Made by a program: the position numbers and the translations under genes
Shown: in pieces, positions 281-20,000 of the stretch
Numbering within the stretch: the stretch's first letter is position 1
Layout of the letters: each line of letters starts with the position of its first letter
The notes under the pieces: generated by a model
Seen by the model: the letters and a program-made list of their open reading frames with translations, nothing else
The model's database searches: none
What the model was told of the DNA's origin: nothing
Virus record (IMG/VR): IMGVR_UViG_3300025470_001263
DNA length: 20,000 bases
Direction: 5' to 3' (one strand)
Origin: an uncultured virus (IMG/VR IMGVR_UViG_3300025470_001263)
Lineage: Duplodnaviria > Heunggongvirae > Uroviricota > Caudoviricetes

Positions 281-1719
281 TTTTTTTTTTCGTTGTCCTC
301 TTCAGGTACAACGTCTAATGTCGTTGGTTCGTTACTAAATGTTTCCGTTTCAACATCGTTTAAAACTTGTAACATATCATTGGGAAGTTGCCCTTCTTCA
401 AATGTTAATTCAGGTTCATTGTCTACTGATTCATCAATTGGAATGATTAATTCTTCGTTTTCTTGGTAAATATTTTCGATATTTGTTTCAATAGTAGAAA
501 AATTTTGTTCTTCTTCATCTATTGATGGTTCAATAGTAGAAACTTCTTCATCAATCATCGGATTATCAAATGGTTCATCATATAAACCCATATCCTGATT
601 ATTTTGTATCATTTCACCAATCGGGTCTCTATATGTTTCTTTAATAACTTTATAATCGTTATCAAGTCCACCTTTTTCTCTTGGTCCACTATTTGCTAGT
701 GCACCTGTCGGTTCATCTTCAGGAAGTACAGGACCGTGTAATGCTTCTCTTTGAGCCTCATATTTTTGCATTCTTTCCCAAACTTCATCGGGAAGATTTG
801 ACCAAGGTTTTTGATTCACTTCTTCTTCATACTTCTTAGCACCTTCTTTCAATGCTTCGTTTGGTTCGACTGGTGTTTTAGAAAATATATATTTTTCTAA
901 AATTTCTAAATCATTTTTACTTAGAATAAGTGGAACTTCATCTGTATCAATAGTATCTTTAATTGGTTTATTTTCATTTCCAGTTGGTTTACCATCCAAT
1001 ACCAATTGATTGAATGCAATTACTAAAGCAATTGCCAATGGATCGAAAACAATTACTATTAATATTATGAAAAATTTAACTACGGAATTCAACGGTACGT
1101 TAAAAGCTTGCGCAACAAATCTGAATCCTCCAACTTCTTTTTCCAAGTTAATATTATTATTTTTAATTTCGTTGATATGGCCATTATAAACAACATTTGA
1201 ATCTTGTAACGAACTTATTTTATCTGATATAAGTTTTGTTTGTTTATCACGATTATCGATAGATTTTAATAAACGATTGTTAACTTTATTATCTAATAAT
1301 TTACCTTGGTTTTGTTGTAAATTAGTTAATTGTGTTGTTAAGTTAGTAATTTGAGAAGTGTTGGAAGTAATTTTATTATTCCAAACATCAATTTCTCTTT
1401 GTACTTGTTCTAATTTAATATTTTGTTGTTGGAAAGCATTTGATAGGTAACCAAATATACCTGCAGACGTAATTGTCATTAGGATAACGACAGAAATTGT
1501 TAGGTACCATTTATTAATACCTTGTATCTCAGACCATTTTTGTTTGAGGTATGTTGCGGTAACTAATTTAGCAAATTCTAAAGAACCAGCCATAACCATA
1601 ACGGCAATTGCTGCTCCGCTAAATAATACCGCTAAACCTGTTACTGAAAAATATGCTGCGCTACCAGCAATCATAAAAGCAGCAATAGCTATCAAATATT
1701 TTAACCAATCATTTCTCAT
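274..1719 (-). CDS. Phage membrane protein: 3 N-terminal TM helices, coiled coil, fourth TM (FDPLA motif), acidic low-complexity tail
   Basis: Hydrophobic stretches at about aa 8-50 and 72-92, an N/Q-rich heptad region, and FFIILIVIVFDPLAIALVIAF. A TATTTAT motif lies 5 nt upstream of the ATG. Confidence 0.8.
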   Translation of the reverse strand: MRNDWLKYLIAIAAFMIAGSAAYFSVTGLAVLFSGAAIAVMVMAGSLEFAKLVTATYLKQKWSEIQGINKWYLTISVVILMTITSAGIFGYLSNAFQQQNIKLEQVQREIDVWNNKITSNTSQITNLTTQLTNLQQNQGKLLDNKVNNRLLKSIDNRDKQTKLISDKISSLQDSNVVYNGHINEIKNNNINLEKEVGGFRFVAQAFNVPLNSVVKFFIILIVIVFDPLAIALVIAFNQLVLDGKPTGNENKPIKDTIDTDEVPLILSKNDLEILEKYIFSKTPVEPNEALKEGAKKYEEEVNQKPWSNLPDEVWERMQKYEAQREALHGPVLPEDEPTGALANSGPREKGGLDNDYKVIKETYRDPIGEMIQNNQDMGLYDEPFDNPMIDEEVSTIEPSIDEEEQNFSTIETNIENIYQENEELIIPIDESVDNEPELTFEEGQLPNDMLQVLNDVETETFSNEPTTLDVVPEEDNEKKNL

Positions 1720-1722
1720 GTA

Positions 1723-3733: not shown

Positions 3734-4405
3734 TTACTTTTTCTTAACAATCTCGTCGATAATACCATAAGTTAATGCATCGTTAGCGTCTAACCATAAA
3801 TCACGACTAGCATCGGCTTTAACTTGTTCAGGGTCTTTACCGCAGTAACTCCCTAAAAGATCAAATAAAATATTATTGACTTTCTCCCATTCTTTGAAAG
3901 TTATTCTTGCATCTTGGATATTACCACCTGCACCACCTGAGGATTGGTGTAACATCGTTGTAGAGAACCTTAAAGCTCCTCTTTTACCTTTGGTACCTGC
4001 TCCAAGTAAAACTGACCCCATAGAAGCGGCCATCCCCGTATTAATGGTTCTAATATCGGAACTAATATACTCCATAACGTCTACCATCGATAAACCTGAT
4101 TTTACAGACCCACCAGGACTATCAATATGCATTGTGATGTCATTATTGTCGATACTATCCAAAAACATTAATTGAGCTTGAGTAACAACTGACATGTTAT
4201 CGTTTACTTCACCGGCCACCCAAATGATACGTTCCATCATCAAACGTGAGAAAACATCCATCTGCGTAACATTCAATTGTCTCTCTTCAAGAACATATGG
4301 TGTTAAACTGTTAGATACTTTTTGATTATAATAATGTAAGTTCATTGAACTTATACCGCGGTCTTTAGCGTATAGACCAAAACTTTTCAATTCTGATGGG
4401 TTCAT
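3734..4405 (-). CDS. clpP: ATP-dependent Clp protease proteolytic subunit
   Basis: LTPYVLEER..MDVFSRLMMERII, SPGGSV, catalytic Ser in MAASMG, His in MLHQ, Asp in RDLW, and YGIIDEI. Confidence 0.96.
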   Translation of the reverse strand: MNPSELKSFGLYAKDRGISSMNLHYYNQKVSNSLTPYVLEERQLNVTQMDVFSRLMMERIIWVAGEVNDNMSVVTQAQLMFLDSIDNNDITMHIDSPGGSVKSGLSMVDVMEYISSDIRTINTGMAASMGSVLLGAGTKGKRGALRFSTTMLHQSSGGAGGNIQDARITFKEWEKVNNILFDLLGSYCGKDPEQVKADASRDLWLDANDALTYGIIDEIVKKK

Positions 4406-4452: not shown

Positions 4453-6792
4453 TTAAGAAATTTTTGTTGTAATAAAATCTATCGAAGAAATATTATCCTC
4501 TTTTTTTATCATTATAAGATTATCAGACCAGTTACGTATTAAAGGATTATGTGATATGACAAAAATGTGTTCAAAATAATTTTTAATTTTCTTAAAGAAC
4601 TCACCAACCAACTCAAGATTTTCATCGGCAACTTTACCAAATACTTCATCCATAACCACTATATTAGGTTTAGGTAATGATGAAATTTTTGTTAGTACAC
4701 TTCTAATCGCTAATGATGCTATTGTTCTTTCATAACCTGATCCTGAATTCAATGGTTTAACGATTCTTGATTCAGTATCAATCATTATAAATTCAACTTC
4801 ATTTTTATCATTGATATTCATCTCTAAAATAAAATAACAACTATCAATCAAAAGTCTATACAACTCCTCATTCAATAATGGAATCATATTTTTCAAAATA
4901 ACTTTAGAGATACCATTCTTACCATAGATTGTTAAATAAACTTTGAATACGTTTGATAACTCTTCTTCAGCTTTAATTTTTTTAATTAAATCCTCATTAG
5001 TGGCTATCTTATTGGTCATAAGACTAATGTTACTTCTATGTCGCTCTATATTTGTATTGTTTTGTTTTATATCAGCATTAGCTGTTTCAATTTGTGTCCT
5101 AATCCTAATAACGTCAGCATCTATCTTTTGATTTTCTTCAAGTTTCTTTTTATTATTTTCATAATTATTTAAACGCGTTTGTTTAGCATCAATATCTAAT
5201 TGTTTTTGACCAACCTCTAATTCATATCGCGCTTTTATAAGTTTATTTCTTTCATATGTTTCATATTCAGATTTCAGATTAATAAAAGCAGTTAAAGCTT
5301 TGTTTTTTTCTGTGATGTTTTTATTCAATTCATCTACTTGAGCTTGTAAATCTTTAATTTGATTTTTAATAGCTTCAATTTCATCAGAATGGTCAACCTC
5401 ATCTAAAGACCTATTACAAGTTGGACAAATAGATCCAGTTTCTAATTGAGTAATTAATTTTTGATTTTTTGAAATATCATTTTGAATAATTCTCAAATCC
5501 GATTTCAAATTATTGATTGTTGAATTCAATTCTTGATGTGTATCTTCATCATAAAACTCCGATGGTTCCGTAACATTTACATTATCAGCCAAGGCTTGGC
5601 TTTTCTTTTGTTCGGTTTTTAAAGTGTCTATCTCTCTTTGTAATAAAGTTGGATTTGTATTTATTAGATTTTTATCAATGTCGTTGTTTCTTGAACTAAG
5701 AATTAAATCTTTTTCGTTTTCTAATCTCTCTAATCTGGCTTCAGCATCAGTCAATGCTGTAGTTAAAATTTCAATTTGAGTTGTTGAGTTATCAATGCTT
5801 TGTGCAAAACTATCATTATCAATTCCAAGTTGAGTAAGGTTATATGTGTTTGAAACTAATTTCCTATTCCAATCATTGAATATTTCTTTTGCGCGTTCTT
5901 CTTTAATTTTGAGACTCTCCAATCCTAAAAATTTAGTTAAGATTTGTCCACGAGCAGTTGGTTTAGATTCGATTAATTCTTCTAAATTATAACCAGTAGT
6001 TAAAATGGTTGATAAAAAATCTTCTTCAGTACCGATAGCTGATTCAATAAAAGTTTCAGTTTCTCTTCTTTGTTCACCAGTTAAATTTTCTACTGTACCG
6101 TCTTCTTTTATTTTGGAGAATTCTAATTTTGTAGTAACATTATGTTCACCCAATTTAGTTTTCTTTCTTATAGATTTTCTTTCTATAATATAGTCGTGTC
6201 CGTCAATATTAACTTCACCTCTTACTTTAACTTCATCAACATCCGTGAATTTATTAAAAATTTCAGCGTTTGTTTTTGTTTTAGTAGTGATATTGAAAAA
6301 TAAAAACATTAATAAATCAACTGATGAGGTAGATTTACCACCAAAGTTTTTAGGTGTAGATTCTATTACAGTAATGCCATCAAGACTTGTAAAATCAATA
6401 ACATTATTATTACCAAATGATAAAAAATTGGAGAATTCAATTTTCTTAATAAACCATTTATTATATCTAATTTTATTTTCATTTAATTTATCTATTTCTG
6501 AATTAACTCGGTTATCTAATCTATCAACCAATTCCCATTTAATATTAATATTATTTTCTTTGATGAAGTCCTTCATCAATGTTTTTTGGTATTGACTATC
6601 TAAAATATTATCAGTGGCTTCTAACGAATTTAACTTTGTATTCTTGATATTGGTTAAAACCTTAGTAACTATCTGTACGTTCTTAGCGTTATATTTTTGT
6701 TGGAAATATGTCTTAACTCTTCTAATTTTCTCCGAGGTGAAGTTCTCCGGCACATCTTCCCAAGTCACTTTTATCGATGGATTTTTTGACAT
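4453..6792 (-). CDS. sbcC: SbcC/Rad50/gp46-like recombination ATPase with ~110-aa N-terminal extension
   Basis: IEFSNFLSFG, Walker A NFGGKST, long coiled coil with CPTC zinc hook, signature SGSGYE, Walker B VVMDEVFG, H-loop ISHN. Confidence 0.93.
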   Translation of the reverse strand: MSKNPSIKVTWEDVPENFTSEKIRRVKTYFQQKYNAKNVQIVTKVLTNIKNTKLNSLEATDNILDSQYQKTLMKDFIKENNINIKWELVDRLDNRVNSEIDKLNENKIRYNKWFIKKIEFSNFLSFGNNNVIDFTSLDGITVIESTPKNFGGKSTSSVDLLMFLFFNITTKTKTNAEIFNKFTDVDEVKVRGEVNIDGHDYIIERKSIRKKTKLGEHNVTTKLEFSKIKEDGTVENLTGEQRRETETFIESAIGTEEDFLSTILTTGYNLEELIESKPTARGQILTKFLGLESLKIKEERAKEIFNDWNRKLVSNTYNLTQLGIDNDSFAQSIDNSTTQIEILTTALTDAEARLERLENEKDLILSSRNNDIDKNLINTNPTLLQREIDTLKTEQKKSQALADNVNVTEPSEFYDEDTHQELNSTINNLKSDLRIIQNDISKNQKLITQLETGSICPTCNRSLDEVDHSDEIEAIKNQIKDLQAQVDELNKNITEKNKALTAFINLKSEYETYERNKLIKARYELEVGQKQLDIDAKQTRLNNYENNKKKLEENQKIDADVIRIRTQIETANADIKQNNTNIERHRSNISLMTNKIATNEDLIKKIKAEEELSNVFKVYLTIYGKNGISKVILKNMIPLLNEELYRLLIDSCYFILEMNINDKNEVEFIMIDTESRIVKPLNSGSGYERTIASLAIRSVLTKISSLPKPNIVVMDEVFGKVADENLELVGEFFKKIKNYFEHIFVISHNPLIRNWSDNLIMIKKEDNISSIDFITTKIS

Positions 6793-7657
6793 TTTTTTCT
6801 TTTTTTTGTTTTCTTTTATTTTTTTCAGCTTCTCTTTCAGCTCTTTCTTTTTCTTTCTCTTGTTTTAGTCTACGTTTGTTTTCTTCAATTTCAGACTTTG
6901 TTTCTTCCAACTGAATTCTATGATTAAAGTATTCAATTTGCTGTAAAGATAGTTCAGATCCAATATATTTCAAATTTCTATTTATACAAGATAAGGCCGT
7001 TGTACCTGTTCCCATAAATGGGTCATAGACAACTGAATTGTCTTTTGCGTAAATACCCAAAAGTTTATCACATAATTCAGTAGAATAAGTGGCTTTATTG
7101 TATGGATTACTACCATCATTGTTTTTTGCAACTATAAAGTTATCGATTATTTCATAATAATTCTGACCAGTTGATGATACCGATGCGACATCTTTATTAG
7201 CTTCGAATGTTAAAATTTCGTCTTTCCTACAAATTACATAAATAAATTCAAATATTCTGTTAAGTCTATTATAAGATGCAGGATGAGGTATTGCGTGATT
7301 TTTTTTCCAAATAATTGTATCAGCAATAGTGAACGGAGTATTCTTCAAAATTTCACAAACAATTGAATAGGGTAGGGCAGGATTTTCAATAGAATAAGAA
7401 AAATTATATAAAATAACCCCATTACTTTTCAATATTTCATCGAATGAATTAAAAACGTCTACAGTCCAATTAAGATAGGTTTCTTCATCTTGCCAATCGT
7501 TATAGGAATCGTATCTAGGTTGTTTATCAGCATAACCACCTTTCCTTTTAGTCATATTGTAAGGTGGAGATGTTAAAACAATATCAATAGATTTTTTATC
7601 TATTTTAGTTTTCATAGTCACCAAACAATCCTCATTATGTATTATGTTAATATCCAT
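6722..7657 (-). CDS. Beta-class amino-methyltransferase (N6_N4_Mtase family; SPPY suggests m4C) with K/E-rich C-terminal tail
   Basis: Motif IV TSPPY is N-terminal and motif I VYDPFMGTGTT is C-terminal (beta order). TAATG overlap with the upstream nuclease; the 3' end overlaps sbcC by 71 nt. Confidence 0.92.
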   Translation of the reverse strand: MDINIIHNEDCLVTMKTKIDKKSIDIVLTSPPYNMTKRKGGYADKQPRYDSYNDWQDEETYLNWTVDVFNSFDEILKSNGVILYNFSYSIENPALPYSIVCEILKNTPFTIADTIIWKKNHAIPHPASYNRLNRIFEFIYVICRKDEILTFEANKDVASVSSTGQNYYEIIDNFIVAKNNDGSNPYNKATYSTELCDKLLGIYAKDNSVVYDPFMGTGTTALSCINRNLKYIGSELSLQQIEYFNHRIQLEETKSEIEENKRRLKQEKEKERAEREAEKNKRKQKKEKNVKKSIDKSDLGRCAGELHLGEN

Positions 7658-8610
7658 TAATTCTGATTTAATATTAGTCTTGATTTAAAATCAAGTAAGT
7701 CAAACCAATAACATCCAACACATCCTATAGCATCATTATATTCAAGATTTCCACTTGTTAAAGATATACCATATCCTAAAAAAGATGCATCGTATCTTAT
7801 ACAATTTTCTTTACATCTTTTACAAGAATTTCTTTTAATTTTATTACATTTATTACATAACGGTTGAAAATCTGATAAATTTTGAGTTATTGAGTTTAAA
7901 ACTTCTTTGTCATCATATCTACCGTTTTTGTGATCGACCTCAATTTTAGTTCTTGTATTGCAATGTGCACATTTTTGTTTTGAAATTATTTTTTTTATAT
8001 CATCACGTATATATCTATTTTTATGTTCATAATCAAAATTGAAACCATTGAATTTATACGCAATTGTTAAACCATTCTCTCCGAGCCAAGTTTCAACTTT
8101 AAAAATAGCTTCAGCATCTCTTTTCCAACCTACTCCGTTATTCGGTTTCAATTTATCATCTTTAGCATCAAAAATATCAAAAAAAGTTTTCTCAGAAAAA
8201 CCAAATTCATCAACGGGTGAATATTTTAGGATTCTTGCAATTTTACTTTTAGGCTTAAGTTTTCTTAATTTTTCTCTGAAATAAAATAATAATTCTTGCT
8301 CTTCTTCCTTGATTTCTTTTGCAACTTCTAAAACTATTTTTTCATCACATTTATATTTTGTTTTTAAATCCTCAATTACTTTCCTCCATTCTGTGGCAGA
8401 ATTTTCGGTAGTTTTAAAAAAAAATTTATGTTTTTGTGATGAAATTTTTAAATCTATCTGAATCGCATTTCTTCTTTCTTCAATCGAAGAAGGTATGACT
8501 GGTTCAAATAATTTAGAATCGCTGAAATAAAAATCTTTTACTACCTGATATAATAAATCATTAGTGTTGTTATAATAAAATATTTTTTTACCTATCCTAT
8601 AAGATCTCAT
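7657..8610 (-). CDS. HNH restriction endonuclease of the R.NlaIII/IceA1 family (CATG-type), with N-terminal extension
   Basis: NNGVGWKR, FNGFN...IRDDIKK, CAHC..IEVDHKNGRYDD, TQNLSDFQPLCNKCNKIKRNSCKRC, RYDA and GCVGCYWFD follow the motif order I recall for NlaIII and H. pylori IceA1. Confidence 0.82.
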   Translation of the reverse strand: MRSYRIGKKIFYYNNTNDLLYQVVKDFYFSDSKLFEPVIPSSIEERRNAIQIDLKISSQKHKFFFKTTENSATEWRKVIEDLKTKYKCDEKIVLEVAKEIKEEEQELLFYFREKLRKLKPKSKIARILKYSPVDEFGFSEKTFFDIFDAKDDKLKPNNGVGWKRDAEAIFKVETWLGENGLTIAYKFNGFNFDYEHKNRYIRDDIKKIISKQKCAHCNTRTKIEVDHKNGRYDDKEVLNSITQNLSDFQPLCNKCNKIKRNSCKRCKENCIRYDASFLGYGISLTSGNLEYNDAIGCVGCYWFDLLDFKSRLILNQN

Positions 8611-8921
8611 TATTTTATTCTATTTTCTTCAAAAAATTCAACAATCGAATTGATTGCCCAAACAACACCTGCAGTAAACATACCGTCAGAAAATATACCA
8701 ATGTATTTATTAACACCAAATATAGGTGCAACTAAACCTCCGAAAAGAATCGACATAAAAAATCCTACCCAAGTTGGTGTACACAACATACAACTAATTA
8801 AATCACCAAAAAATTTTGATTTTGTTTTAATCCAAGCTCTTTGATTTTCGAAGATTGATCCATAAACAATTATGGTTGACATTCCGTATGCAACGAATGC
8901 CCACAAGACAAGATATATCAT
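8610..8921 (-). CDS. Small membrane protein, DUF1360-like
   Basis: Three hydrophobic segments and a CxxCxxxW motif (CMLCTPTWVGF). Confidence 0.7.
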   Translation of the reverse strand: MIYLVLWAFVAYGMSTIIVYGSIFENQRAWIKTKSKFFGDLISCMLCTPTWVGFFMSILFGGLVAPIFGVNKYIGIFSDGMFTAGVVWAINSIVEFFEENRIK

Positions 8922-8950: not shown

Positions 8951-9328
8951 TTATTCGTCATACAAAGAACTGAGGTTACTATTTTTCATAAACGTACCCT
9001 TTTTTTGTGTATTAAAGGCAGCGAGGATTTTATCCATATCTTCTTTTAACTTATCATATTCCTCCTTGAGTTTTACGTATTCCGTATTATCTGTATTATT
9101 GATAATTACTTCTTTGATAACCTCAACAGGTATTTCTTTTATCACTTCCTTTTCGACTATAACTTCATTAGTTTTACCTGAAGCAAATGACGGGGATTCA
9201 CCATATTTTAGATACGCAAAGCCTCTGTTAAATGTTTCCTTAGCTAATTTATCAATGTCAGTGATATTATTCAATTCACAATACAAAGAGAATTCATCAT
9301 CCAAGATTAAGGTGTATTTCTTTTTCAT
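8951..9328 (-). CDS. Hypothetical protein with EVIKE-type repeats and short coiled coil
   Basis: VIVEKEVIKEIPVEVIKEVI. ATG at 9328 (the track starts at TTG 9331); overlaps the 3' end of the SbcD-like gene. Confidence 0.7.
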   Translation of the reverse strand: MKKKYTLILDDEFSLYCELNNITDIDKLAKETFNRGFAYLKYGESPSFASGKTNEVIVEKEVIKEIPVEVIKEVIINNTDNTEYVKLKEEYDKLKEDMDKILAAFNTQKKGTFMKNSNLSSLYDE

Positions 9329-10103
9329 CAATAATATCGTTAATATCTTTTATCGAGAAATGTAAAAATGGTTCATCATTTTCTAAATCTCTAAATGTGT
9401 AATTATTTTCTACCACGTCGAAAATACCATAACCGTGATGATTCAATGTCTCACCGAAGTTTTGTTGTATGAGTGAACCTATCATAATACCTTTACCCCC
9501 ACTTGGTAAAGTAAATGTTTGTCTTTTATGAATATCACCGCACAATAATAAATCTAAATCGACAAAATTCAACTGATCATACGCATCTTCGAATTGGAAT
9601 CCCATATCGGTTGATAACCCTTGGATAGGACCGTGAAACAAACCTACTGTTAATTTAGTCTCATCCTTTTTGAATTCAGGTCGTGAGTTATGTTGATATA
9701 AAGAATAAACAATCCATTGAATGTTATCGTCTATATATTCACCACTATCTTTATAATATTGAATGTTATCGTTATTCAATAGTTCTGTTATAGGACTGAT
9801 ACTATCTAATCTCTGTGTATTGTTTTCTAAAAAATCATGATTACCAGGTATGATAACTACCTTACCAATATTTTTCACCAACTCATTTATAAACCAAGAA
9901 GTTAACATCAACTGTTCATTAGATATGTTAATTTTTTGGTGAGCTATATCTCCTGCAATTACAACTCTAATGTCCTCATAATTGAAATCTTGAGTTTCTT
10001 CCTTCAATTCAAGGATTAATTTTTCGAACTGCTTTTTGTATAAATCGTGCATTTGAATTGTACGAATATGTAAATCAGCAATATGTATTATTTTTTTTAC
10101 CAT
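9297..10103 (-). CDS. sbcD: SbcD/Mre11/gp47-like metallophosphoesterase nuclease (short, catalytic domain only)
   Basis: IADLH, GDIAH, GNHD, FHG, GDIH and GSLIQQNFGE motifs. Confidence 0.92.
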   Translation of the reverse strand: MVKKIIHIADLHIRTIQMHDLYKKQFEKLILELKEETQDFNYEDIRVVIAGDIAHQKINISNEQLMLTSWFINELVKNIGKVVIIPGNHDFLENNTQRLDSISPITELLNNDNIQYYKDSGEYIDDNIQWIVYSLYQHNSRPEFKKDETKLTVGLFHGPIQGLSTDMGFQFEDAYDQLNFVDLDLLLCGDIHKRQTFTLPSGGKGIMIGSLIQQNFGETLNHHGYGIFDVVENNYTFRDLENDEPFLHFSIKDINDIIDEKEIHLNLG

Positions 10104-10973: not shown

Positions 10974-11375
10974 TTACCAACTTATTTCCCAATCTTTAAA
11001 ATCTGCAGCAAGACAGTCTATCTTATAATCTTTCCTACCTCCAACAACTTCTTGAATTTTATTTTTTGCAGTATTACGAATACCATTTATTCCGTGAGTT
11101 AATGCTAACATACTCGGTCCTGCGGCACCACTTCTAACATTTGTTTCATTATACCATATGTGTGCATTCATTTGAGCTAAAACCACAACAGCTCTTAAAA
11201 CATCTGCTGTAATAATACCGTTTTGTTCATCTAATATTACTTGAATATCGTGAACAATGTCAGCAATCTCTTGTGCATACTCAGTTTTATGTTCTGGTAT
11301 TTTAACTTCTTTTAATTGTGTTATCGATAATCTATCGATTAATTCTGATAACGTGGGTAGATATTTTCTTTCCAT
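10974..11375 (-). CDS. Conserved helical hypothetical protein (DUF4254/DUF6165-like)
   Basis: TLSELIDRLSITQLKE, N..IW.NE..VR and N..RN..KN.I motifs; TAATG coupling to the primase gene. Confidence 0.6.
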   Translation of the reverse strand: MERKYLPTLSELIDRLSITQLKEVKIPEHKTEYAQEIADIVHDIQVILDEQNGIITADVLRAVVVLAQMNAHIWYNETNVRSGAAGPSMLALTHGINGIRNTAKNKIQEVVGGRKDYKIDCLAADFKDWEISW

Positions 11376-12316
11376 TAGTCTAATTGTTTTAATTCGTAAT
11401 CTTTTATATTTCCTTGCAAATCTGCTATGTCCTTATCTCCTTCTAATTTTATAATCCAAACTTTATTCATTAATTTACCACAATTTAATTTGTGATATAA
11501 TCTTTCAGCGTCACCCCAAGCATCGGGGTCTAATACTATCACTATCTTAAAGGCTTTCTCATATAATTTAGTGTATAAATGATCACTCATATACTTACCT
11601 AACATTGGTATTGAGTTCTTTATAAAAATACTATCGAAGGCTCCTTCAACTATGTAGATTGTATCAGTCCAATTAATATGATACTCATTAAAAATTATGA
11701 TTTCTTTTTGAGCTTCAGGATTTTTATATTTTCTTTTTGGTTTTGATAAATATGATCTAGCAATAAAGTAATTCAAATTATTATATTCATCATAAGATGG
11801 TATTATAATTCTAAATGCATATTCTCCATCATAACAAAATCCGATATTAAATTTTATTAACATCTCTTCTGTTATATTTCTTTTTTTGATGTAAGCGTAT
11901 GCTTGTCTATATTGTGGAGTTAATTTTAAACCACTACTGGCGTTTTTGAAAGCAATAAATTCTTTAGGTAATTTGACAGGTTTATAGATTCTTTTTGGGG
12001 CATCCTCATTATATTCAGGTCTTAATAACAAAAACTTTTTAAGTTGTTTTGCATTACCATATTTTTTAATTAATTTATAAATTGAACCGTGAGTTTCGTG
12101 AGTTTCTGCACAACTCCAACATTTATAAACACCTGATTTATAATTAATTTCTAAATTTCCTTTACCGTCACCTTCATCTAAACCTTTTATTTCGTGACTA
12201 CATACTGGGCAATCAAAACTCACCTGACTTTTATAGTCACTGTGATTTCTATAATCACCAAAAATATCTTCTAAAATTTCGAAAATTGGTGTATAATCGT
12301 TTACTTCAATTGCCAT
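11375..12316 (-). CDS. Phage DnaG-type DNA primase (Zn finger + TOPRIM)
   Basis: CPVC...CWSC zinc-binding domain, YIKKRNI, RIIIP, FIAR, KYKNP, IVEGAFD, LDPDA and DIAD. The ATG at 12316 is preferred because the track start at 12388 runs through the terminator hairpin. Confidence 0.9.
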   Translation of the reverse strand: MAIEVNDYTPIFEILEDIFGDYRNHSDYKSQVSFDCPVCSHEIKGLDEGDGKGNLEINYKSGVYKCWSCAETHETHGSIYKLIKKYGNAKQLKKFLLLRPEYNEDAPKRIYKPVKLPKEFIAFKNASSGLKLTPQYRQAYAYIKKRNITEEMLIKFNIGFCYDGEYAFRIIIPSYDEYNNLNYFIARSYLSKPKRKYKNPEAQKEIIIFNEYHINWTDTIYIVEGAFDSIFIKNSIPMLGKYMSDHLYTKLYEKAFKIVIVLDPDAWGDAERLYHKLNCGKLMNKVWIIKLEGDKDIADLQGNIKDYELKQLD

Positions 12317-16270: not shown

Positions 16271-17092
16271 TTAAACAAAACATTGTGGAATAGTATTGGT
16301 TCCGTATCCATTTATTGTTATTTCGAGATAATATCCATTACAAGCAGAATCATAATTTCCTCTTTCATTCAAATACGATGTATATGATATTGAGCCAGAT
16401 GAATGTCCTGCATAAATTGTAACGGCATCATCTTGGTAGTAATCACTATCACCAGGATAATCAATATGTTCTTGGTAATGATAATTTATGTTTATAATCA
16501 CATCCGTTGGTGTAATAAATGAATTACCAAATTGATCATATAATGTTACAGTAGTTAAATTGATTATATCTGTTGAACCTGGACAACTACTACTATCCTC
16601 ACTATGATAATACGCATCTGTAAATGTGGCACAAAATAAATAAGGTTCTGTTGGTGTTGAAGTTGGTGTAGGTGTGGTAGTCGGTGTTTGAGTTGGTGTA
16701 GGTGTAAATGTATATGTTGGTGTAATTGTAGGAGTTGGGGTAGGGGTTAAAGTATTTCCATACATAACATTACCATCAAAATAACATACCAATGTAGGTG
16801 TTACTGTAGGTGTTATTGTTGGAGTAGGTGTATTTGTAGGTGTTTGAGTTGGTGTTGGTGTTGGGAATATTATATCATAATGATTACCACAACATTGACT
16901 TTCAGAAACAACTCTTACTGTTGTTGTTCCATTAGGTACATTATTAGTACTGAAACCATATATTAATGTATTCGAGGTTATACCTGTTTCAAATGCATTT
17001 GTATATCCATCTGTATCAGAATATAAATTGAATGGGCCTGTATCTGAACCAAAACCTGTACTTGGGAATGTTATTGTTACTGAAATCGACAT
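16271..17092 (-). CDS. Paralog of 15288..16256 with two Thr-Pro tracts
   Basis: GPFNLYSDTDGYTNAFETGIT; two TP tracts; unrelated C-terminus. Confidence 0.7.
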   Translation of the reverse strand: MSISVTITFPSTGFGSDTGPFNLYSDTDGYTNAFETGITSNTLIYGFSTNNVPNGTTTVRVVSESQCCGNHYDIIFPTPTPTQTPTNTPTPTITPTVTPTLVCYFDGNVMYGNTLTPTPTPTITPTYTFTPTPTQTPTTTPTPTSTPTEPYLFCATFTDAYYHSEDSSSCPGSTDIINLTTVTLYDQFGNSFITPTDVIININYHYQEHIDYPGDSDYYQDDAVTIYAGHSSGSISYTSYLNERGNYDSACNGYYLEITINGYGTNTIPQCFV

Positions 17093-17170: not shown

Positions 17171-19429
17171 TTATGCACAGACGCCAGTGGCTGTAAATTT
17201 ACCTACGCTATTTATAATACCGACAGTTCCATTAAAATCTACATAATAATATCCAAATCCATCATATGGTGTACCATCGGAATAATAGTAAGTTATTCCA
17301 TTACCAAGATTTGAATCACCTCCAGCACCTGGATATATTGTAACTACATTTGTTAATGTATAAGCATACATACAAGCATTTGCTTGAGTTCCGCCATAAT
17401 TCACTAAGAATCCTGTCCCTACTCCTTGTAAATCCATTACTGAACTTGTTGTTGTACAACCATTTGTATCTGTAACAACAACATAATAATTGAAGGGTCC
17501 CAAACTTGTAAATGAACCTGTACTATTACTAGTGATAAGTGTACCACCGCTATTGATATATGGAGACGATGTGTCTTCATATAATGAATATGTATATGGA
17601 CTTGTTCCGCCAGCTGCGGTTGCTGTTATTGATCCATTGTTACCTGATGTTGCATTTGTAAATGTTGTTGATACAGACAAAGCTGCACTTGGTTGACTTA
17701 CCGTTCTTGAATATGTCGTAGGAGAACATCCACTATCATCTTCAATATAAATTGTATAAGTGTTAGGTGATAAACTACTAAATAAATGTGGTACCGAATA
17801 ATATGTTGAACCATTGATTGATGTTTGATATCCTGTACCCGAACCGCCTGATGGTGTATAAACTTGTATAGTACCATTTGAACCACCATAACAAGAAACA
17901 TTTGATACTGCAATTGATGCGGTTACTTGTGTTGTGTTAAGTGTTACAGATGATGATGTTGCAACAGTTCCATTAGAATCCTTTACTTTTACTAAGTATG
18001 TTCCGTTAGATAATCCATTGAATGTTGCTGAAGATTGATATGAACCATAACTAGAACCACCATTCGAACTAATCGCATAAGTATAAATTCCTGTTCCCCC
18101 TGTACCTGATGCTGTTAAATTTCCATCACTATTACCATAACAACTTGGATTAGTTGAAAAAGTTATAGAAACATTTAATGCAGGTAATGTATGTGATGGT
18201 GTTGGCGTTAACGTTACAGTTGGTGTAGGTGTTAAAGTTGGTGTTACAGTTGGTGTTGGTGTTAAAGTAGGTGTTTTTGATGGTGTGACGGTTGGTGTTG
18301 AAGTATATGTTACAGTTGGTGTTGCTGTATAAGTTGGTGTTATACTCGGTGTAATTGTAACTGAAGGTGTAGGTGTTTGTGTTGGGCTTAATGTAGGTGT
18401 AGGTGTGGGTAATGTTGGTATTGGATTACCGCAATAAATTGTTGCAACACATCTAGCAGTACAAGTATCATAATATAAATTATAACCAGCAGGACAACTA
18501 TATCCATAACCAACAATATCACTAACATCTACGTAAGTTCCTACTCTAGAAGATGAAGTGAACTGAACATTTAATTGACTATATAGAGTTGCACCTGTCA
18601 ATTGTGATAAAGTATTATTATATATTTCAACACCAAAACCCGCAATTGAATCAATATTATAACCTTGAACTGATAGTGTTGCTGTTGGTGTATCAAATAC
18701 AACAGGATATACGTGCCAATAATTAAATTGTTCAGTTGATCCTGATGTTGATTGTAATGTTGTATCTATTAATTTTGTTCCATTGACACTTATTTTAAAA
18801 TCATTATCAGCCGAAACTCCGACATAATAAGTTGTACCCACAGTTAAACCAGTTATACATTGAACAAACCCAATAAAAGTACCTGTTGGATTATCAGTAG
18901 CACCTGTGGAAGGTCCTGGCCAAACCGCACATCTATTCATTGGGCCATCAGAAGTGTTTGTATAAGGATTTGACCAAAGTGTACCTACATACGTTCCACC
19001 AAAAGATGGGGTTGTAAAACCTGCTAAATAAGTGCCTGTTCCATCTATATTAAAAGATGTAAAAAATTTGGTGCCAGCATCACTGTAAACGTTATTAGTT
19101 CTGCCCGATAATGAAACCAATGTTGTTGGTGGTTGTGCTGGCATTGATATTGTTGTATATGAAGCGGTACCATCCAAAGTACCAATCCAAGTATAACCTG
19201 TTGGGCACGCAGTAAAATCCTGTTTAGAAACTAATTCATTTGAAATTTTAGCAGATAAATGAGCATTTGTAGGATCAATAGCAACATACCCCAACGCACG
19301 AGATTTTGTTAACTCTTTGTTGGTTGTTTGAATTGTTTTCAACGAACTAAAATATCCTGCGGTAACCGCTTGACTTAATGTTGTATCACTAACAATTTCA
19401 TTACTTGTTAATCCTGTCCAAAATGCCAT
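17171..19429 (-). CDS. Large adhesin-like virion protein: beta-sandwich domain, Thr-Pro linker, three SprB-type repeats
   Basis: Three repeats of N.SC.G..DG.I.....GG...Y.Y...F..L..GTY.V.V.D.NGC at about 17441-18175; TP linker at about 18195-18417. Confidence 0.8.
18195..18417 (-). repeat. Thr-Pro low-complexity coding repeat (similar tracts at about 15896-16031, 16646-16756 and 16792-16866)
   Basis: Degenerate ACACCA/ACACCT repeats encoding (TPTxTP)n; boundaries approximate. Confidence 0.85.
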
Positions 19430-20000
19430 ACAAATTTTCTATTTTTGATTCCAATTCTTTTATCTTCTGTTCTAATTGTTGTATTTTCAAAGTGTGTACA
19501 TCACTATAATTAACAGTTAATGGCATATCACCTACAACTAAATCACTACAAAGCTCTTTTACTTCTTGAGCAGAATAACCATATCTTACTTGTTTATCAC
19601 CTCTCATTGTAAATTGAATTACGTTTAATGATGATAAATCAATGTTTGGATTTCTTAAAATTATATTTTTTACTCTTATATCTGATGTTTCATAATAAGC
19701 TGTAGCATAAACACTACCCGTAACACTCAAATTTGTTCCATCAAATGTCAAATTACTGTTAACTAAACCACTTGCTGTTGCATTTACATATGTAATGATG
19801 CCATTGTTGGTTGTTCCTGCTAAAGTTAAAAAACCACTTGTACCAGAAGAACCATTTGCACCATTAGCTCCACTTGTTCCAGAAGAACCATTTGCACCAT
19901 TAGCTCCACTTGTTCCAGAAGAACCATTTGCACCATTAGCTCCACTTGTTCCAGAAGAACCATTTGCACCATTAGTACCACTTGTTCCAGAAGAACCATT
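19401..20000 (-). CDS. Tail fibre C-terminal part: Gly-X-Y repeats plus S74 intramolecular chaperone (start lies beyond the window)
   Basis: The frame is open from 20000: ([12 protein letters not shown])n..[21 protein letters not shown]. Autocleavage motif SDIRVK, then [13 protein letters not shown] and a terminal coiled coil. Confidence 0.88.
19834..20000 (-). repeat. 36-bp tandem repeat, about 4.6 copies visible, encoding [12 protein letters not shown]
   Basis: Unit CCACTTGTTCCAGAAGAACCATTTGCACCATTAGCT (+ strand) at 19834, 19870, 19906, 19942 and 19978 (partial), with 0-2 differences per unit. Confidence 0.95.

Follow-up and report, generated by a model that had tools for sequence, protein, structure and literature searches.

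A restriction endonuclease that lacks its methyltransferase is usually regarded as lethal, and the avoidance of restriction sites by phages is usually read as escape from host enzymes. In the NlaIII and IceA1 systems, whose family site is CATG, the methyltransferases M.NlaIII and M.HpyI are D12-type, alpha-class enzymes that produce N6-methyladenine (m6A). Among viruses, the Chlorella-virus pair R.CviAII and M.CviAII combines a CATG nuclease with a methyltransferase and is thought to attack host DNA, and phage T4 breaks down host DNA first with endonucleases II and IV and then with the gp46/gp47 (Rad50/Mre11-like) exonuclease, telling self from host by hydroxymethylcytosine. Here, we analyse a 20,000-nucleotide (nt) stretch of DNA from an uncultured virus (IMG/VR record IMGVR_UViG_3300025470_001263), hereafter the window, which encodes a long nuclease of the NlaIII/IceA family and, directly behind it, a beta-class DNA methyltransferase, the two genes lying within a module of SbcD-like and SbcC-like genes. 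We read the nuclease as an active CATG endonuclease aimed at non-self DNA, from which the phage would be protected by the absence of the site and, in this lineage, by a cognate methylase; we give this reading a probability of about 0.6.

The nuclease family (PF05315) is described as the NlaIII/IceA1 type II family within the His-Me finger superfamily (PMC5714182). Like R.NlaIII and IceA1, the phage protein has the catalytic domain of a clear family member, with conserved HNH motif and Cys clusters, and a co-oriented methyltransferase gene next to it. Unlike R.NlaIII and Helicobacter pylori IceA1, it carries 123 additional N-terminal residues, and its gene sits in a jumbo phage inside an SbcCD module, with close relatives that have no adjacent methyltransferase. 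Its partner also departs from the M.NlaIII and M.HpyI pairing, being a beta-class PF01555 enzyme with the motif SPPY where D12 enzymes accompany 28 of 80 cellular loci. The window pair has the adjacent, co-oriented genes of a type II restriction-modification system; the relatives, with their nuclease and no methyltransferase beside it, depart from such a system.

Other comparisons are looser. Rusinov et al. 2018 (PMC6286503) describe restriction-site avoidance by phages in which the sites avoided are those of host systems; our case shares with that account the genome-wide removal of a short palindromic restriction site, and differs from it in that the matching nuclease is carried by the phage and the avoidance is absolute in the methylase-less lineages. 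The Chlorella-virus CviAII is likewise a virus-encoded CATG nuclease with a methyltransferase (CATG specificity being predicted for the window enzyme), but the algal virus keeps methylated sites instead of purging them, and CviAII has no documented family link to NlaIII. One listing places CviAII among the unclassified enzymes (PMC2441816). T4 offers a parallel in its self-sparing endonuclease alongside an SbcCD-like exonuclease, a combination proposed here from gene order, although the endonucleases are unrelated and the mark in our case would be an absent or methylated 4-base site. No paper that links a CATG nuclease encoded by a phage with avoidance of CATG turned up in the open-access literature searched. 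We would describe the finding as a virus-encoded restriction nuclease with site absence as self-protection, to which a non-canonical methyltransferase has recently been added.

The nuclease

Sequence comparison places the 317-amino-acid (aa) protein in the NlaIII/IceA1 family, as an earlier note on this DNA had proposed from the letters alone: residues 124-310 match positions 3-199 of the 218-position Pfam ICEA profile at 93.7 bits (cut-off 24; E 1.5e-26). The extra N-terminal region described in that note is present too, its length being 123 residues and not about 110.

7657..8610, minus strand: long NlaIII/IceA-family (PF05315) HNH endonuclease, 317 aa
8242..8610, minus strand: N-terminal extension of the nuclease, residues 1-123, the Pfam match beginning at residue 124
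7843..7935, minus strand: HNH/His-Me catalytic core, D226-H227-K228-N229-G230 to N256

Residues D226, H227, G230, N256, K259, R260 and C263/C266/C297/C300 are invariant across 33 family sequences, and the window nuclease retains every one of the 45 columns invariant in its clade and of the 15 invariant in the wider family. Related long-nuclease open reading frames (ORFs) are intact in 17 of 17 complete cases (317-329 aa, with DHKNGR and the downstream N..KR motif), and the protein is 99% identical across three strains of the window lineage. In the long-nuclease clade, conservation does not extend to a fourth Cys of the first zinc cluster.

Family members are normally single-domain proteins of about 200-250 aa, from which the 317-aa phage protein differs by its 123-residue extension. 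A search of 1.84 billion representatives returned 528 homologues; among the best 150 of these, the extension occurs in just seven other cluster representatives, all about 320 aa long, and residues 1-57 are left uncovered by all of the 80 best cellular loci. On this evidence, the long form seems to be confined to this phage clade, within which the extension is conserved. Residues 1-123 had no match in the Protein Atlas, and a PDB sequence search with the nuclease gave no meaningful match. An AlphaFold model of the whole protein has a mean predicted local distance difference test (pLDDT) score of 73, with residues 1-90 confidently modelled; Foldseek returned no match to it at E up to 0.001. A wide structural search, whose matches barely touched residues 1-90, yielded weak HNH nuclease matches over residues 199-307 (Z 4-5.3) and weak winged-helix-like matches over residues 101-192 (Z up to 4.6).

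Purge of CATG

A 50.6-kb viral record, G001 (CheckV completeness 15%), matches the window at 99.36% identity over its positions 30550-50549. Syntenic relatives of the window, G002-G005, are viral contigs of 73-160 kb (22-48% complete), and a more distant relative, G008, is a 322-kb contig rated 100% complete. The match to G001 and the placement of relatives on viral contigs of up to 322 kb support the phage origin asserted in the earlier note, and the window belongs to an uncultured jumbo-phage group with genomes of about 320-330 kb.

In the window, G001 and the syntenic relatives, CATG has been removed almost or fully. Against expectations from a maximal-order Markov model, CATG counts are 3 observed to 56 expected in the window (z -8.4), 6 to 170 in G001 (z -15.4), 0 to 222 in G002 (z -17.7), 0 to 200 in G003 (z -17.0), 0 to 213 in G004 (z -17.4) and 0 to 512 in G005 (z -27.4). 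Taken together, G002-G005 contain no CATG in 395,884 bases, and CATG is the lowest-ranked of 136 strand-symmetrised 4-mers in G001, G002 and G005. Its component triplets CAT and ATG are common despite the purge, with CATA, CATC and CATT each found 1,575-2,506 times in G005. Fifteen metagenome loci with the long nuclease and without the methylase likewise have no CATG, against a summed expectation of about 458; the CATG-free sequences are partly non-independent (locus L163 is 99.96% identical to G003) yet span at least five sub-lineages.

The purge is not a relic. Six methylase-less strain pairs, separated by 998-2,784 single-nucleotide polymorphisms, have created no CATG, where 10.8-33 would be expected if the same substitution spectrum were placed at random (300 simulations per pair, with a smallest simulated gain of 3). 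Selection against CATG is thus ongoing in methylase-less strains. Furthermore, of 29 viral loci with an ICEA gene of any kind (a set that includes duplicates), 20 have CATG as their most depleted 4-base palindrome, where chance would give about 2; the overall CATG ratio in 80 cellular ICEA loci is 0.52. The near-total absence of CATG, which the earlier note does not mention, is the strongest evidence that the nuclease would be specific for this site and for the way in which the phage would survive its own enzyme.

ICEA genes also occur on contigs labelled GVMAG, that is, giant-virus assemblies (L011, L013, L015, L027, L029-L031, L034 and L035), several of which are strongly depleted in CATG (for example, 1/37, 0/14 and 0/21 observed/expected).

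The methyltransferase and CATG tolerance

The gene behind the nuclease encodes a 311-aa protein that matches PF01555 (N6_N4_Mtase) with E 1.7e-32 and 113.6 bits, and scores 18.3 bits against PF02086 (D12 class), under the cut-off of 22.

6722..7657, minus strand: beta-class PF01555 DNA methyltransferase, 311 aa
7559..7570, minus strand: motif IV, SPPY, residues 30-33, read from the sequence
6998..7018, minus strand: motif I, FMGTGTT, residues 214-220, downstream of motif IV
6722..6910, minus strand: Lys/Glu-rich C-terminal tail of about 60 residues, the last 71 nt of its gene overlapping the start of sbcC

SPPY lies ahead of FMGTGTT, and the motif order is therefore that of the beta class, which bears out the earlier assignment. 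Besides the window enzyme, only its three closest homologues (P0152-P0154) have this tail; a typical member ends at about 250 aa. Relatives within the subfamily are 54-84% identical, and SPPY is invariant in 12 of 12 members. SPPY is typical of N4-methylcytosine (m4C) enzymes, and to our knowledge no CATG-specific m4C enzyme is known. In a search with the subfamily profile, the best solved relative was the N4-cytosine methyltransferase of Adineta vaga, which also has SPPY (E 6e-23), followed by adenine-specific DPPY enzymes (5HEK, E 1e-17). The Adineta enzyme (N4CMT; PDB 8S9M/8S9N; PMC10406627) is only distantly related. From these comparisons, m4C is the favoured product, with m6A possible.

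Presence of the methyltransferase goes with tolerance of CATG. Among long-nuclease phages, the lineage that carries it is also the one with CATG sites, three in the window, six in G001 and six in the metagenome locus L158.

1717..1720: CATG site 1 of 3 in the window, common to G001 and L158
4193..4196: CATG site 2 of 3, common to G001 and L158
9836..9839: CATG site 3 of 3, private to the window (CGTG in G001)

A further CATG lies in the aligned sequence of L158, and three more lie in a 0.8-kb segment of it that has no alignment to G001. CATG gains in this lineage are roughly neutral, at 1 against 1.5 expected and 1 against 4.3 expected. More distant phage contigs with the same methyltransferase subfamily (54-66% identity) all retain some CATG, at 0.13-0.26 of expectation (16/122 in G006, 59/376 in G007 and 228/873 in the complete G008). 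Moreover, members of the subfamily (61-66% identity) adjoin a short ICEA nuclease of 194-200 aa at three other phage loci, namely L009 (a T4-like contig), L073 (in G008) and L074 (in G009), so the swapped methyltransferase supposed in the earlier note is not a one-off.

Two side observations concern these contigs. The 0.8-kb segment of L158 (reverse-complement 11311-12118) spans the SbcD C-terminus and the 126-aa ORF and has normal CATG density, as if recently imported. In G007, the beta methyltransferase is followed by a 185-aa ORF without a Pfam match (L072:4786-5343), in the slot of the short ICEA gene in L073 and L074, and then by a D12 methyltransferase and a pyrimidine-dimer glycosylase.

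A resident nuclease and a newcomer methyltransferase

All genes of the nuclease region lie on the minus strand of the window and are given here in transcription order, around the nuclease and methyltransferase listed above.

9297..10103, minus strand: SbcD/Mre11-like phosphoesterase (Metallophos E 9.1e-12; phrog_100 E 8.5e-24), upstream of the nuclease
8951..9331, minus strand: small ORF of 126 aa, between the SbcD-like and DUF1360-like genes
8610..8921, minus strand: DUF1360-like small membrane protein, 103 aa (PF07098 E 3.5e-4, 20.9 bits, just under the cut-off of 21)
7657..8610, minus strand: nuclease
6722..7657, minus strand: methyltransferase
4453..6792, minus strand: SbcC/Rad50-like ATPase (phrog_77 E 1.2e-51), directly downstream
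3734..4405, minus strand: ClpP-type protease

Two small genes (8610-8921 and 8951-9331) thus separate sbcD from the nuclease. Base 8610 is common to the stop of the DUF1360-like gene and the start of the nuclease gene, and base 7657 to the stop of the nuclease gene and the start of the methyltransferase gene; both junctions read TAATG on the coding strand, which agrees with the translational coupling noted earlier at these two positions. The methyltransferase gene then runs 71 nt into the start of sbcC (6722-6792) in a different frame.

The earlier note had both genes inserted as a cassette between sbcD and sbcC. Presence and absence in long-nuclease relatives, four viral contigs (G002-G005) and 15 metagenome loci (L159-L172 and L177), support this for the methyltransferase only. 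The long nuclease occupies the same position, with sbcC directly after it, in 19 of 19 relatives, and in none of the 19 does a methyltransferase lie between the two genes; the common order is primase, exonuclease, SbcD, small ORF, DUF1360, long ICEA nuclease, SbcC and ClpP. The DUF1360-like gene is immediately upstream of the nuclease in 18 of 19, the remaining locus (L168) starting inside the nuclease gene. The methyltransferase occurs only in the window, G001 and L158, which form one lineage with 98-99% identity, and no PF01555 gene was found in G002-G005, contigs that are 22-48% complete. The methyltransferase is therefore a lineage-specific insertion, and the long nuclease a fixed resident of the SbcD-SbcC position. 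The nuclease is 35-45% identical to that of the relatives, compared with 62-83% for neighbouring proteins.

One subclade has a UDP-glucose/GDP-mannose dehydrogenase gene inserted within the SbcD-SbcC module, after the small ORF and before the DUF1360 gene (L004:4393-5634, with equivalents in L163-L167, L171, L172 and L177).

A different methyltransferase was considered as a former partner. G002 encodes a 278-aa D12-class enzyme adjoining a NusG-like gene (L049:4364-5200), syntenic in G003-G005 and cleanly missing from the corresponding spot in G001 (L047:4484-4572), in the window lineage; the G002 copy shares about 90% identity with those of G003 and G005, where neighbouring genes are about 60-70% identical. 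The idea that this enzyme was the alpha-class partner for CATG and gave way to the beta enzyme in the window lineage was rejected because BLASTP of the G002-G005 enzymes against 15 ICEA-linked D12 enzymes gave E values of at least 0.016. Those 15 enzymes are 52-86% identical to one another. The methylase-less G005 also encodes a C5 cytosine methyltransferase (L069:8985-9938) about 95 kb from the nuclease, and a thymidylate synthase (L069:3475-4569) that exceeds the 266-position Pfam profile by about 100 residues.

Partners in cellular loci

The partner was surveyed in 80 cellular ICEA loci, with one flanking ORF taken on each side (153 ORFs). Neighbouring methyltransferases were of the D12 class in 28 cases, the C5 class in 17 and full-length PF01555 in 4, all of the last with DPPY. 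In addition, 18 of the 80 loci carry a protein of about 260 aa that matches only the C-terminal half of PF01555, often as a second methyltransferase, and lacks a (D/S/N)PP(Y/F/W/H) motif. No SPPY beta enzyme was found among the flanking ORFs, and none of the 80 loci has a close relative of the window methyltransferase (best tblastn identity 19-35% over partial lengths). By this comparison, the SPPY partner is non-canonical relative to cells, as the earlier note had held, yet it recurs in phages. NlaIII-family systems as such are found in many cellular genomes, including those of Flavobacteriaceae.

Purge of GATC and other words

A second 4-base palindrome, GATC, is partly depleted in the window (24/62 observed/expected) and in G001 (71/171). 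In G002, a Dam-type methyltransferase (PF05869) is encoded just after ClpP (L002:12046-12531) and 21 GATC remain where 236 are expected; among G002-G005, only this Dam-bearing contig has GATC sites, which suggests that gain of a methylase relaxes the purge. The beta methyltransferase is disfavoured as the GATC protector, since L072 and L073 carry the same subfamily yet have GATC at 0/26 and 0/27.

Among other words in the whole contigs G005, G002 and G001, CCAG/CTGG (245 observed against 582 expected in G005) and CTAG are markedly under-represented. In G001, GTAC is over-represented (429 observed against 258 expected), an excess due to local repeats that lie outside the window (bins 0-2.5, 12.5-17.5 and 20-22.5 kb).

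Proposed mechanism and alternatives

In the mechanism that we propose, the 317-aa protein would be an active HNH restriction-type endonuclease that cuts CATG and has long stood in the SbcD-SbcC module, the phage being spared mainly through its CATG-purged genome. A CATG-free genome needs no methyltransferase to harbour a CATG nuclease, which would be the situation of the methylase-less relatives. In the window lineage, the SPPY methyltransferase would have been inserted directly behind the nuclease, to be translated from the same message; it would modify CATG (probably as m4C, possibly as m6A), allowing CATG sites to begin to reappear. Self would thus be told from non-self by the absence of CATG, plus methylation in the window lineage, and the nuclease would attack CATG-bearing DNA in the infected cell, whether of the host chromosome, of rival phages and plasmids, or of both. 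The fixed place of the nuclease between SbcD-like and SbcC-like genes suggests that its double-strand breaks may serve as entry points for the flanking SbcCD-like exonuclease; this cooperation, like the DNA attacked, we infer from gene order. A more specific version, in which a solitary type II nuclease served as a weapon, selection kept a genome of about 320 kb free of CATG, and one sub-lineage then gained the SPPY methyltransferase and had the constraint lifted, we hold tentatively, as somewhat short of an even bet.

Several observations weigh against the proposal. GATC is purged as absolutely as CATG, with 0/211, 0/244 and 0/473 observed/expected in G003, G004 and G005, 0/341 in G007 and 0/901 in the complete 322-kb G008. 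Searches of G002, G004, G005, G007 and G008 for DpnII- and MutH-family nucleases were negative, and in a Pfam scan of 118 of the 136 G005 ORFs with 130 aa or more, no family of known GATC nucleases came up. Given a purge of GATC without a recognised phage nuclease, an absolute purge is no proof of a self-encoded nuclease, and hosts, or an unrecognised phage nuclease, could have imposed both the CATG and the GATC purge. The specificity of the nuclease could have drifted, since it has diverged so much further than its neighbours. The link between methyltransferase and tolerance within the long-nuclease clade derives from a single gain, for which a switch of host or an altered nuclease would be an equally good explanation. 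Moreover, L073 and L074, which have both nuclease and methyltransferase, are still poor in CATG (1/20 and 2/25), and in five of the eight viral loci where the methyltransferase subfamily occurs, no ICEA gene lies close by; the subfamily therefore also lives as an orphan.

In one alternative, CATG- and GATC-cutting systems of the hosts imposed the purge, the methyltransferase serving foremost as anti-restriction against host NlaIII-like systems and the nuclease being a captured host restriction gene, cost-free in a CATG-free genome and used against competing phages (superinfection exclusion), not to degrade host DNA. The equal purge of GATC, the wide spread of NlaIII-family systems in cells, the frequent orphan state of the methyltransferase and the contrast between Dam-bearing G002 and the GATC-free, Dam-less G003-G005 all fit it. 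We nevertheless consider it unlikely: the nuclease is intact at one position in diverged lineages, which argues for a function in every infection, and CATG is exactly zero in all methylase-less relatives (about 396 kb of viral contigs plus the 15 metagenome loci), an outcome that a self-encoded nuclease would demand and variable hosts not necessarily. This alternative shares the CATG nuclease and immunity through site absence with our proposal and differs only in the first driver and the target. Quite improbable, in our view, is that the long ICEA-like protein is instead an accessory nuclease of SbcCD (acting by nicking, by recognition of structure or at another sequence), with the methyltransferase an unrelated orphan neighbour. 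The clade-specific 123-residue N-terminal domain, the fixed position within the module, the fast divergence (35-45% identity against 62-83%) and the non-conserved fourth Cys of the first zinc cluster would suit such a role, but the genome-wide purge hits exactly the site of the NlaIII/IceA family, the methyltransferase subfamily pairs with an ordinary short ICEA protein in three other phage contigs, and CATG tolerance tracks the methyltransferase. Finally, CATG reappears only in the window lineage among long-nuclease relatives, as would be expected if an inactive or decaying nuclease, and not methylation, had let the sites return; with a full-length ORF that retains every clade- and family-invariant column and 99% identity in three strains, decay is scarcely credible.

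Phage context

The phage has no close cultured relative in 50,697 GenBank phage records, a collection that may lack records near the window: the best SbcC match there has 23% identity, and tblastn found no ICEA homologue at E up to 1e-5. A gene for an SprB-repeat protein (17171-19429) and a G+C content of about 30% in the window hint at a Bacteroidota host. Tandem repeats occur in the same part of the window, a 36-bp unit in 4.6 copies with 97% matching at 19834-20000, inside an ORF that runs off the window edge, and further 18-66-bp repeats at 16649-16862 and 18213-18352, the latter within the SprB-repeat protein gene.

Significance

The pair could supply a CATG enzyme with different methylation sensitivity, together with a possible m4C CATG methyltransferase. 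For phage biology, the consequences depend on the predicted activity. If the enzyme cuts CATG, the absence of a recognition site can act as the self-marker for a virus-encoded nuclease, which would give phages a simple route to the capture of restriction genes, and the window lineage would provide a dated natural experiment on relaxed selection after the gain of a methylase. Should the nuclease indeed have served as a solitary weapon before the methyltransferase arrived, these phages would offer a before-and-after view of the assembly of a restriction-modification system, in which avoidance and methylation substitute for one another.

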